DNA from: Escherichia phage UFV-AREG1
Sequence record: KX009778
Strand: one strand, 5' to 3'
Length of the DNA stretch: 64,000 nucleotides
Shown here: in pieces, positions 1 through 64,000 of the stretch
How positions within the stretch are numbered: the stretch's first letter is position 1
Layout: each line of letters starts with the position of its first letter
Program-made: the position numbers and the translations under genes
Notes under the pieces: generated by a model
Seen by the model: only the letters and a program-made list of their open reading frames with translations
Databases searched by the model: none
Told to the model about the DNA's origin: nothing

Positions 1-11
1 AATTTTCCTTA

Positions 12-2189
12 TTAGGCCGCAAGGGCCTTCATAGTTTTAGCGATTTGGGAAACTTCATCATCACTTAAAGAGTTGCGATAACCGATGAAGTCGGAAACAA
101 TACGGAATTTCTTGGTAAACTCAGCAACCATTTTATCACTGTTTTTTGAAGCATTATTTGATAATACATCAAAAAGATTAGTTACTGTCCAGATGTCATG
201 ACCAATGGTATCTTTTCCACCATTAAAATATACACCGCGCAATGAACTAACTATATTAGCGAGTCGTGTATATTCTTCAGAAACTTCATCTGTGCTGAAG
301 TACTTCATCATAAAATCTAGTTCAGGATACTTGATAATTTTATCAATATATCGTTGAGCTGAACTTGAATAACCTACGTACTTATCATAATCTACATCAT
401 CAAAAGCATCTACATATAAATCGCGCAAAGCTTCAAAAATACATTGGCACTGACCGAGTTCTTTTACCTTTTTCTGCAAAAGCGGACGAATAACATAAAA
501 CTCATTAATGCCAATAATATTAGCCATACGAATCAAAATATTCATAGATGGATGACAAAGAGATGTAGTACCATCCATAGAGAAAATATCAGAACGATGC
601 ATATACGCTACATAACCAGTAATTTCATCTGCTTCTGATGTGAGCGTAAATAATTCCTCTTTTTCCCAGCGCCCGTCTTTAATTTCAAACTTAAATGCTG
701 TAGCAGCTTTAGGACGAGGAGCTTTACTTTTAACTACCTTTGGAATATAGCTTTTAACTAAAGCTTCAATTTCTGACAAATAATGAATGTTAACTTCATC
801 ACTTTCAAACATTGCCATAATATCAGGTAGTAAATCAATCTGCGATTCTACTTCTGGATTAATAAACAGAAGACGATCATTATGATGAATATTCAGAGTG
901 TTATTAAATTCACTATCATCTAATGCACGTGCTAATCCACGGACAATATTAACACGATTTTTAATATTATCAATAACGATATTAATTTTTGTTGTATTAA
1001 TGCCAAACAGACGATAACTTGATGCAACGGCTGAAGTTTCATGACTTTGCTTAATGCGTTTCAGTCGAGGGTCAAGATTTACTTCATACACAACCCCTGC
1101 ATTGCATAACTTACTGTCAGGTTCAAACATGCTCTGCATCTTTTTATATGACAGATTTTTAGTCGTAAATTTGACTGAATTGCTAATCATATAATCTCGA
1201 GCAGAATATCCCATCTTCATCAATTCACGGTATGTATGACGAGGAGATGTAGATTCTTTAAATCGTTTTACATCTTCATTAAATGCTTTCTCACTGAGTT
1301 CTTTAACTCGTTCAATAATATTTTTACGAGTACGATCATCTAATGAAAGAGCTTCGCGTGATGGAGCAATATCAAGTGAACCCATTGGAAACTTAATGTA
1401 ATTCACTTCATTGCGAATGCTTAGCCAGTTACGGTCTCTAATAACACCATCAATAGGATAAACAATACCACCGTAGATAGCATACAATCCACCACGATCT
1501 GGCCAATATCTTTCTGGATTTACGCCGTAATAGTCATCAAAATCCGGAAAATAATCAATTTCGCGGTCAAGACCATTAATGATAGCCAAATCTTTGAATG
1601 GTCGCATGATATAAGAAACTTCATAAGCAAAGTTTCTAAAGTCTTTTTCTTCAACTGGAACTACGATTTCAATACCAGTTTTATCATCTGGACCCATTTC
1701 TTTTACGAATGTAGGTTTAATCTGTGGACCATCACCATCCATGTAAGCTACATAACCACGAATTTCACCTTTATGATATGAAGTAATACTAAATGTATCA
1801 GTATAACTAAACGGAGATTTAGAACCTAAACCAAATCCACCAATGAAATCATTAGATTCAGCCTTAGATGAACTAAAGTATGAATTATACAACCCAGGAG
1901 AATTATCATCACCCTGAATATCAAAATCACTCATACCCGGACCAAAATCTCGGCAAACAAATCGTGGATCTAAACGTCCAGGAACTTGAATGATAAATTT
2001 TTCAGGATTTCCATTGAGAGCATGAGCATCAATCATGTTAGTAATTAATTCACGGACTACTGCACGAATCTTGTTTGTATACAAATCAGACGACAGAATT
2101 TTAAATACTTTAGGAGATGCTGTGATGCTAAATGCTTTTGATTTAGAACCATTACCAAGAATTGTTTCTTTTTCAGTGGTGATAATCAT
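12..2189 (-). CDS. rIIA: rIIA protein (membrane-associated, lysis inhibition / Rex exclusion)
   Basis: 725-aa ORF; N-terminus [16 protein letters not shown] and length match T4 rIIA as recalled; first gene of the T-even early cluster. Confidence 0.9.
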
Positions 2190-2199
2190 AATTTCCTCA

Positions 2200-2403
2200 T
2201 TAATTCATATTACGCTTAATAACTTCAGCAACTTCTAGTAATTCATCTTTAGTTGCAGTGTCGGATTGAATTTTATCTCTAATATCTTTAAAGCGGTTTT
2301 TAAACTCTTCGGCTTCTCCCATATCGAAAAAGCGTTGAATAATTCTATATTCTCGATGAACTGCTTTATCAAAAAGTTCTAAATTTACTTTATATGATTT
2401 CAT
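2200..2403 (-). CDS. small protein at rIIA.1 position
   Basis: 67-aa ORF immediately downstream of rIIA, own early promoter at 2429-2458; synteny with T4 rIIA.1. Confidence 0.55.
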
Positions 2404-2428
2404 TCCAATATCCTCATTTGCCCAATTA

Positions 2429-2458
2429 ATTATACCACATCCTTGTGGTAAAGTAAAC
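2429..2458 (-). promoter_or_regulatory. early sigma70-type promoter for rIIA.1
   Basis: minus strand reads GTTTAC-18-TATAAT (plus: ATTATA...GTAAAC). Confidence 0.55.
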
Positions 2459-63067: not shown

Positions 63068-63080
63068 AATACCTCCTAAG

Positions 63081-63101
63081 TATTTATAGAAGGTATTTAT
63101 A
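63081..63101 (-). promoter_or_regulatory. two tandem late promoters (TATAAATA) for e
   Basis: exact TATAAATA on minus strand at 63081-63088 and 63094-63101, followed by GGAGG RBS and e ATG. Confidence 0.6.
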
Positions 63102-63104
63102 AAA

Positions 63105-63560
63105 TTAAAAGAGGTTGTTCATTATTCGGTAAAGTGAAGGACCCATCACATATTGCCACTGAGTACGAGGAATAAGAGCAAAAGCGTCCATCTCTGGAAT
63201 CATAGCACCGTCTTTATTTTCAAAATAAGACTCGCAATGGCAATTTCTAAACATCTCATGCTCTACTGGAATCGTATAATAAAATAACTGTAAGTCTTTA
63301 TTACTAGAATATTTAAATACACCTAGGTCTTCTAGAAGGTCTGGATTATAATTGCTAAAACCGGTCTCTTCTAAGCATTCTCTTTTTGCAGCTTCCAGTG
63401 CATTCAAATCAGAACTTTCTACACGTCCCTTTGGAATATCCCAGCGATGTGCCATCATTCCAGGCTTACGAGAACCAGTAACCCGACCCATAAATAAATC
63501 TTTATCTTCTGTCATGAAGATAATACCAGCTGATAATGTTTTCATTTTAATTTCCTGCAA
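63105..63560 (-). CDS. nudE: Nudix hydrolase NudE
   Basis: 151 aa as T4 NudE; Nudix box [23 protein letters not shown]. Confidence 0.8.
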
Positions 63561-63904
63561 TCACTCACAAACTCTTTCATTGATTCATTTTCAATATAAG
63601 ACATGTAGCTATTATATTCTTTTAATTGTATTTTGTAATCCTTTTTTCTTTGCCAATTTATTTTAAAATTATCATAATGAAAATATAACATGGTACCAAA
63701 GAATGAAAATAATGAAATAATTTTAGTATAGTGAAGTTCACTCCAAACTTCTGTTATATTTACTGTGCCGTCGATGTTTAAAATAAGACAGTCAATTAAC
63801 AATCCAAAAAGACTACCCGCAAGAGCTGCAGCCAACGCCACAGCAAAAATTAAAAATGACTCAGGAAGCGAATATTTGACTTTATTTAGTTTTGGCTTTT
63901 GCAT
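63542..63904 (-). CDS. membrane protein
   Basis: 120 aa with two hydrophobic helices. Confidence 0.45.
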   Translation of the reverse strand: MQKPKLNKVKYSLPESFLIFAVALAAALAGSLFGLLIDCLILNIDGTVNITEVWSELHYTKIISLFSFFGTMLYFHYDNFKINWQRKKDYKIQLKEYNSYMSYIENESMKEFVSDCRKLK

Positions 63905-64000
63905 CGTGATTCCTTAACAAATTTCATAATTTCATCAAATTCATATGCAGCAAGTTTAAGCTGGTGTTCCTTTTTAATCTTTTTACACTGCGCTTTCCAA
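63886..64000 (-). CDS. partial ORF (C-terminal fragment, continues beyond window)
   Basis: open frame from window edge ending ...KFVKESRCKSQN, stop overlapping next start. Confidence 0.3.
   Translation of the reverse strand, partial: WKAQCKKIKKEHQLKLAAYEFDEIMKFVKESRCKSQN

Follow-up and report, generated by a model that had tools for sequence, protein, structure and literature searches.

The 64,000-nucleotide (nt) stretch of Escherichia phage UFV-AREG1 analyzed here (sequence record KX009778; hereafter, the window) is very probably the rIIA-to-e.3 early-gene region of a naturally occurring Tequatrovirus, in which the variable slots are mostly occupied by the alleles of phages T2 and T6. Three loci are central to this reading: gene 39, which encodes the large subunit of DNA topoisomerase II and is unsplit; the locus at which phage T4 carries the endonuclease V gene denV, and at which the window carries the internal head protein gene ipIV; and the interval between nrdD and nrdG, which holds the sole homing endonuclease gene of the window. 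The backbone lies approximately 3–4% from each of T4, T2, and T6, and is about equally distant from all three.

The window aligns by blastn to positions 1–68415 of T4 (NC_000866) as a single collinear chain, with nucleotide identities of 92–99% in most blocks; four short blocks fall lower, namely goF-cef (86%), the region around nrdG (85%), gene 56 (73%), and the 5' end of ipIV/ipII (74%). This chain is interrupted by 19 indels or replacements, eight of which are insertions relative to T4. The alignment to T2 extends over 61.5 kb at 95.3% identity, and that to T6 over 58.3 kb at 94.4%; in shared segments, per-kilobase identity to the three phages is about equal (typically 96–98%), and T2 ranks nearest more often than the other two across the variable kilobases. 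Petrov et al. (2010; PMC2993671) delimit the T-even type by genome collinearity and by nucleotide identities above 90% for most alleles that T4, T2, and T6 share; the window is collinear with all three, and its identities to them (overall for T2 and T6, in most blocks for T4) exceed that value. These alignments bear out the original prediction, which proposed a T4-like backbone with non-T4 gene content of the T2/T6 type (an uninterrupted gene 39, no endonuclease V open reading frame (ORF) between the vs.8-position gene and the internal-protein gene, and a single homing endonuclease) and named comparison with T4, T2, and T6 as the check: no DenV-like ORF and no split 39/60 were found, and indels relative to T4 are present. 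The window spans rIIA to e.3, and every substantial ORF in the ORF list lies on the minus strand. That the window is the first 64 kb of a T-even genome record is marked by:

12..2189, minus strand: rIIA, with coordinates matching those of T4 and T2 records; 97% nucleotide identity to T4

Megablast searches with three consecutive pieces covering the whole window matched 326–517 Tequatrovirus-type records at 95–99% identity, depending on the segment queried. No record in the collection searched exceeded approximately 97% over long stretches, and the best record varies from piece to piece, which rules out T2, T6, or another listed isolate as a single source genome. ARAGORN identified no tRNA genes in the window, and an Rfam scan of the whole window returned zero matches, so that no group I intron or other known RNA family is present.

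Gene 39 is a single reading frame in the window, and contains the segment that an insertion has removed from T4:

2458..4275, minus strand: gene 39, DNA topoisomerase II large subunit, unsplit; 605 amino acids (aa), or 606 aa from an in-frame GTG at 4278

2794..2857, minus strand: 64-nt "parental" segment of gene 39, occupying the place of T4 2794–3910 (1117 nt; a gap in the blastn alignment)

The length of 606 aa originally given counts from the GTG; the ATG (4275) lies one codon after it, and the resulting 605 aa, which we take as the corrected length, is that annotated in T2 and T6. The protein carries the Pfam domains HATPase_c, DNA_gyraseB, and Toprim, corresponding to a GyrB-type ATPase, transducer, and Toprim. 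Full-length tblastn alignments to the gp39 of T2 and of T6 round to 100%, with one visible residue differing from each; across the junction itself the three proteins do not differ. Against T4, the protein aligns with gp39 up to "...LGEKA" and then with gp60 from "N(V/I)AIMTDADHDG..." to the end, matching the C-terminal ~117 aa of gp60. The 1117-nt element of T4 comprises the gp39 C-terminal extension, the mobA remnant, 60.1, the gp60 N-terminal extension, and the 50-nt bypass; neither MobA nor 60.1 has a match at the gene 39 locus of the window, where T4 2794–3910 is unmatched (blastn, tblastn). Over the 111 nt surrounding the MobA site, the window and T2 do not differ. A study of the MobA element reported that its insertion removes a 64-nt parental segment, with near relatives lacking the insert representing the parental state; that only 14 close T4 relatives carry the element; and that MobA nicks T2 and homes into T2 (bioRxiv 10.1101/2022.08.31.505936). 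The 64-nt segment of the window agrees with this published anatomy. We infer that gene 39 in the window is a putative MobA-sensitive recipient allele; the phage would produce a one-piece topoisomerase large subunit.

At the denV locus, T4 has the order ipIII-ipII-denV-vs.8. The blastn alignment shows T4 64943–66383 replaced in the window by 453 nt (62000–62452), with the following features:

61319..61969, minus strand: vs.8 homologue, 95% identical to T4 Vs.8 by tblastn

61970..62010, minus strand: ipIV/vs.8 spacer of 41 nt; T4 has denV here, with ipII and ipIII upstream

62011..62484, minus strand: ipIV, internal head protein IV, 157 aa; replaces T4 ipIII and ipII

The window IpIV is 100% identical to T2 IpIV, matches phrog_3155 (internal virion protein; E 6e-102), and falls in Pfam DUF7412; T4 homology resumes within the first codons common to the internal-protein genes (blastn). 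A tblastn search with T4 DenV at E ≤ 10 identified no homologue in the window, returning only noise of at most 37 aa with E > 3. This search is judged sensitive because the same query finds 1119 phage records. No DenV homologue was identified by tblastn across the whole 163.8-kb T2 genome, and T6 is without the entire vs.3-ipIII block, denV included.

The adjoining vs.8 homologue is itself disrupted: within 61859–61969, a 9-bp deletion and a TAT-to-TAG change terminate the T4-type frame at codon 34, and an internal ATG gives a 179-aa ORF (61319..61858) in the remainder. In a three-way DNA alignment the lesion is identical in T2, which has further frameshifts besides; the lesion common to the two points to common descent of the ipIV-vs.8 junction. 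The uninterrupted junction occurs in RB27, vB_EcoM_112, and fPS-2 as well as in T2, and in about half of nine spread-sampled records (at least 91% query coverage). GiZh and JLBYU31 have a denV gene adjoining ipIV, ~78% identical to that of T4. Lack of denV is not general among non-T4 T-even phages; denV is variable among IpIV-type phages.

A denV gene might conceivably lie outside the 64-kb window, leaving the phage not UV-sensitive (ultraviolet, UV). The window covers only ~38% of a roughly 166-kb genome, which counts against the predicted UV sensitivity, and denV is common in T4-like phages, as the 1119 matching records attest. However, every Tequatrovirus match for which context was seen has denV at this same locus, by ipII/ipIV and vs.8, and T2, with an identical denV-less junction, has no homologue anywhere in its genome; we consider a displaced denV very unlikely. 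Unless denV does sit outside the window, the phage would have no pyrimidine-dimer glycosylase repair, and a UV sensitivity like that of T2 would be expected. The host excision system is not known to repair T-even DNA; without DenV, UV repair would rest on photoreactivation together with the uvsX/uvsY/uvsW pathway. In work attributed to Streisinger in 1956 and Harm in 1963, T2 and T6 were reportedly more UV-sensitive than T4 through lack of the v (denV) function.

A tblastn panel comprising all 15 T4 and three T6 homing endonucleases matched one locus in the window (40243–41058), in accordance with the single homing endonuclease originally proposed; the enzyme encoded there is of the HNH Mob type:

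40228..41067, minus strand: sole homing endonuclease gene, 840 nt, 279 aa; free-standing, Mob-family HNH, between nrdD and nrdG (the mobC slot)

41064..42881, minus strand: nrdD, intronless, 605 aa; 99% identical to T2

The same panel matched ~8 loci in T4 1–80 kb and four in T6 1–72 kb; across the whole genome of T2 it matched a single locus. Seven endonuclease genes occupy the equivalent interval of T4 (the mobA remnant, segF, segA, mobB, mobC, I-TevII, and mobD). The MobB query matches only the endonuclease at 40.2–41.1 kb, and Pfam and PHROGs scans of ORFs of at least 80 aa within the non-T4 segments identified no further nucleases. T4 44815–45849, which holds the nrdD group I intron with I-TevII, is missing from the window, with neither an I-TevII match nor an Rfam intron.

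The 279-aa protein matches phrog_655 (E 7e-37) and phrog_12434, annotated "HNH endonuclease" (E 7e-15). It is at most 24–36% identical to the Mob-family members MobB, MobC, MobD, and MobE of T4 and T6ORF054, including 32% to T4 MobD and 36% to T6ORF054, and within its E-x-HH...N...H...H core the residues E48, H50, H51, P54, N67, H76, and H80 are invariant with respect to T4 MobB, MobC, and MobD and T6ORF054. No Pfam HNH model matched the protein at E ≤ 0.01, and a PDB sequence search returned only noise, so the family assignment draws on PHROGs, BLAST, and motif alignment. Residues 235–272 show similarity to NUMOD1 (E 0.0057) and to an I-HmuI NUMOD-like domain (E 2.4e-4), both weaker than Pfam cut-offs, and a C-terminal "KC..G....GY.W.Y" module is common to the protein, MobB, and MobC. 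The gene also contains a 42-nt direct repeat (40480–40521 and 40582–40623), whose copies are 102 nt apart and share 90% identity; the "LTKLAMQKPEV(R/K)" motif that they encode twice probably represents tandem DNA-binding modules.

The occupant of the nrdD/nrdG slot differs among the phages compared: T2 has none, T4 has mobC, T6 has segH, and the window has the HNH gene. SegH, a GIY-YIG enzyme, was rejected as the endonuclease of this slot in the window; the window gene resembles it in neither DNA nor protein sequence, and the window protein is HNH/Mob-type. With MobC the window enzyme shares the slot and the first codons of nrdG at the ORF start, but its sequence is nearer to MobD and T6ORF054. 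Salmonella phage Jbel encodes a 100% identical endonuclease at the corresponding position; relatives at least 99% identical occur in 13 records and at 86% in Klebsiella phages. Relatives at least 80% identical occur in ~30 phage records, and all of those with known context lie between nrdG and nrdD. The gene is thus distributed sporadically between conserved genes, as free-standing homing endonucleases are.

The first 13 codons of the endonuclease ORF (MNYDRFYPCDFVN; 41028–41068) match the 5' end of the endonuclease-less nrdG of T2 exactly over 40 nt. The window nrdG restarts downstream (40199–40239) with a diverged copy, MNYDRIYPCCFVN, at 78% nucleotide identity; the same variant follows segH in T6, and the nrdG 5' ends of the window and T6 are identical over the first ~56 nt. 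T4 MobC likewise starts MNYDRIY. From this arrangement, the HNH gene looks as though it entered nrdG within codons 13/14 and left the nrdG start duplicated; the duplication suggests the nrdG 5' end as the likely endonuclease target. We propose only tentatively, and with somewhat more doubt than confidence, that the protein is an active homing endonuclease targeting the 5' end of endonuclease-less nrdG alleles. The duplication would give the endonuclease a start for translation that is coupled to the stop codon of nrdD, and could change the target so as to render the carrier genome immune.

Further variable slots, together with the gene e end of the window, extend the non-T4 traits beyond those originally proposed, to the missing dam, segF, segA, mobB, mobD, and nrdD intron, and to βα-gt in place of β-gt:

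15145..15545, minus strand: two small ORFs of soc.1/soc.2 type where T4 has segF; no T4 match, 98–99% identical to T2

16064..16331, minus strand: gene 56/61 junction without dam (window 16104–16123 versus T4 16826–17724)

17529..17885, minus strand: 61.2, short T2-type allele, 118 aa; 97% identical to T2 and 34% to the 208-aa T4/T6 protein

21779..22621, minus strand: βα-gt, β-glucosyl-hydroxymethylcytosine (HMC)-α-glucosyltransferase; replaces T4 segA and β-gt; Pfam TAGT

35422..35446, minus strand: α-gt/α-gt.2 junction without mobB; T4 37818–38678 is without counterpart

53338..54324, minus strand: two ORFs of RB32ORF096c and 097c type where T4 has mobD (gap in the blastn alignment)

62573..63067, minus strand: gene e (lysozyme), then nudE and e.3 (blastn blocks; T4 and T2 annotation)

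No counterpart of T4 segF was identified in the window by blastn or tblastn. Gene 56 is a T2-type allele, 69% identical to T4 at the amino acid level and 97% identical to T2 and T6. T4 Dam has no tblastn match in the window; the 780-nt dam gene lies between genes 56 and 61 in T4 and T2 but not in T6, with which the window is collinear across the junction. The 61.2 protein matches only the C-terminal half of the Pfam AdfA family (anti-DarT factor A; PF23813, E 8.7e-8, profile positions 113–211). The βα-gt product is 98.6% identical to that of T2 over 280 aa, and neither T4 β-gt nor SegA has a match in the window. In the mobD slot, the T6 annotation notes that RB32ORF096c "replaces mobD" and that RB32ORF097c is "similar to mobD.1"; the second ORF matches Pfam T4_y05I_N/C. 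T4 e.2 has no counterpart in the window by blastn; like T4, the window does have motB.1, motB.2, and an intact modB. With βα-gt, the window contains gene 42 (dCMP hydroxymethylase, 22618..23358), gene 56 (dCTPase, 15545..16063), and α-gt (34228..35430), the set of modification genes that characterizes T-even type phages; uvsX lies at 20520..21701. From this gene content, HMC should carry α-glucose and gentiobiose rather than β-glucose, and phage Dam methylation of GATC is not expected.

Taken phage by phage, T2 (LC348380 / NC_054931) resembles the window in its fused gene 39 at the same coordinates with an identical MobA site; in βα-gt, the short 61.2, the intronless nrdD, the absence of e.2, and soc.1/soc.2 with a T2-type gene 56 in place of segF; in an additional Mod-like ORF between nrdC.10 and nrdC.11; and in the ipIV-vs.8 junction without denV, with the same vs.8 lesion and a 100% identical IpIV. 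In contrast to the window, T2 carries dam and an extra ORF (T2_032), lacks motB.1 and motB.2, has an HNH remnant between genes 46 and 46.1 and two extra ORFs between tk.2 and tk.3, and does not have four of the window ORFs; the nrdD stop overlaps the nrdG start in T2, whereas 840 nt of HNH gene lie between them in the window. T6 (MH550421) shares the fused gene 39, βα-gt, the absence of dam between genes 56 and 61, the absence of denV, the RB32ORF096c/097c genes in place of mobD, an endonuclease of some kind in the nrdD/nrdG slot, and the variant nrdG 5' end. It differs from the window in that its slot enzyme is SegH, unrelated to the HNH enzyme; in having two more endonuclease genes in the interval (T6ORF054 and the seg-like RB32ORF093c); and in having a full-length 61.2 and neither ipIV nor vs.3-vs.8. 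T4 is like the window in gene order and orientation across rIIA-e.3, and in motB.1, motB.2, and the intact modB; its seven endonuclease genes, split 39/60 with 50-nt bypass, nrdD intron, β-gt, dam, denV, ipII, ipIII, and e.2 are without counterpart in the window. The proposed agreement with the T2/T6 type therefore stands, in that T2 has the same gene 39 and ipIV-vs.8 junction and neither T2 nor T6 has denV.

Several observations weigh against assigning the window to that type outright. No one database phage combines all of its alleles, and "T2-like" describes most of the variable slots only. The window is a mosaic: dam is missing as in T6, motB.1 and motB.2 are kept as in T4, and one endonuclease and four ORFs are found in none of T4, T2, and T6. 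Additionally, the UV, glucosylation, and marker-exclusion phenotypes are ones that we infer from gene content and the classical literature.

Such mosaicism might be an artifact, with two or more co-cultured T-even phages assembled into a chimera, and the nearest reference does shift by segment among T4, T2, T6, and other database phages. However, T-even type phages are documented to be mosaic as a rule (PMC2993671); every breakpoint coincides with a gene boundary or a promoter module, with all ORFs intact; and individual junctions recur in independent isolates, the nrdD-endonuclease-nrdG arrangement in Jbel, OMNI12, and F25, and the ipIV-vs.8 junction in T2, RB27, and fPS-2. An assembly artifact is accordingly improbable, slightly more so than a displaced denV. 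That the window is instead a laboratory deletion or engineered derivative of T4, stripped of mobA/60.1, denV, and endonuclease genes, is almost certainly wrong: rIIA, gene 39, and many other genes do lie at T4-like coordinates and some blocks are up to 99% identical, but the backbone is 3–8% from T4 throughout (about 96% identity observed), there are eight insertions relative to T4, and the "deleted" sites hold non-T4 genes 97–100% identical to T2/T6 (βα-gt, ipIV, soc.1/soc.2, gene 56, and the short 61.2).

The four ORFs without counterpart in T4, T2, or T6 lie on the minus strand at 24162..24410, 27354..27617, 37004..37273, and 39123..39434, and fall in existing phage families: phrog_4189, Pfam Phage_RB18_ORF43, DUF7200, and phrog_2749. 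That at 27354..27617 is of the "RB18 ORF43.1" type (43.1) and is located between gene 43 and regA; that at 37004..37273 is the DUF7200 member. A 161-aa ORF (51718–52203, minus strand), an insertion that separates nrdC.10 from nrdC.11, has a 94% identical counterpart in T2_097 and none in T4 or T6; with T4 ModB it shares 30% identity, and its PHROG is annotated as an RNA polymerase ADP-ribosylase. By these similarities it may represent a third Mod-like ADP-ribosyltransferase paralogue. Two further genes on the minus strand are divergent alleles: nrdC.3 (45194–46123) is ~61% identical at the amino acid level to T4, T2, and T6 within an otherwise 95%-identical backbone, and tk.4 (57981–58460), for which the T4 annotation gives an A1pp phosphatase motif, is ~58% identical.

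A family of ~100-nt repeats occurs at 6063–6180, 24388–24488, 50173–50241, and 51572–51683, with a weaker copy at 38687–38755. On the coding strand, each contains a GTTTAC ... TAtaCT sequence resembling an early promoter, together with a GGAG ribosome-binding site and an ATG. Copies directly adjoin three insertions relative to T4 (5874–6073, 24152–24384, and 51691–52302). Promoter-cassette shuffling has been described for T4-type phages (PMC2839356, PMC4122927), and insertions abutting the repeats fit such promoter-cassette (PeSL) shuffling.

Differences between the window and T4 would fall into three types under the reading of a natural T-even mosaic. The first comprises sites without the mobile elements of T4 (MobA/bypass, segF, segA, mobB, mobD, and the nrdD intron with I-TevII); these endonuclease-free sites would represent the ancestral or recipient state, convertible by T4 enzymes in co-infection. 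The second comprises cassette swaps at gene boundaries, with βα-gt for segA and β-gt, ipIV for ipIII-ipII-denV, and the HNH gene for mobC. The third would be the gain or loss of small accessory ORFs, some beside the repeated early-promoter modules.

The window is an ordinary T-even segment, and its contrast with T4 is already known, of textbook standing, viewed here from the T4 side. T4 has been placed as an outlier among T-even phages in homing-endonuclease load (PMC2988022), and published reviews treat it likewise for β-gt and the split gene 39. β-gt is found only in T4 and CC31, with βα-gt in all other T-even type phages, and the known variable features of the group include an uneven spread of endonucleases as well as novel ORFs within the 40–75 kb region (Petrov et al., PMC2993671). 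Because reviews already treat T4 as the outlier, our finding re-describes this contrast: the exceptional phage is T4, which has 15 homing endonucleases, a split 39/60, β-gt, and, in the present comparison, denV. The chief value of the analysis is correct annotation, in that what appears as "non-T4 gene content" is the common T-even state. The analysis flags, in addition, the one HNH endonuclease of the nrdD/nrdG slot. The window also provides a list of endonuclease-free target sites, namely gene 39, gene 56, uvsX/βα-gt, nrdD, and the mobB and mobD slots, which predicts marker exclusion by T4; in mixed infection with T4, these sites should convert to T4 alleles. Its gene content further predicts that the phage would share the UV-sensitivity and glucosylation phenotype of T2.

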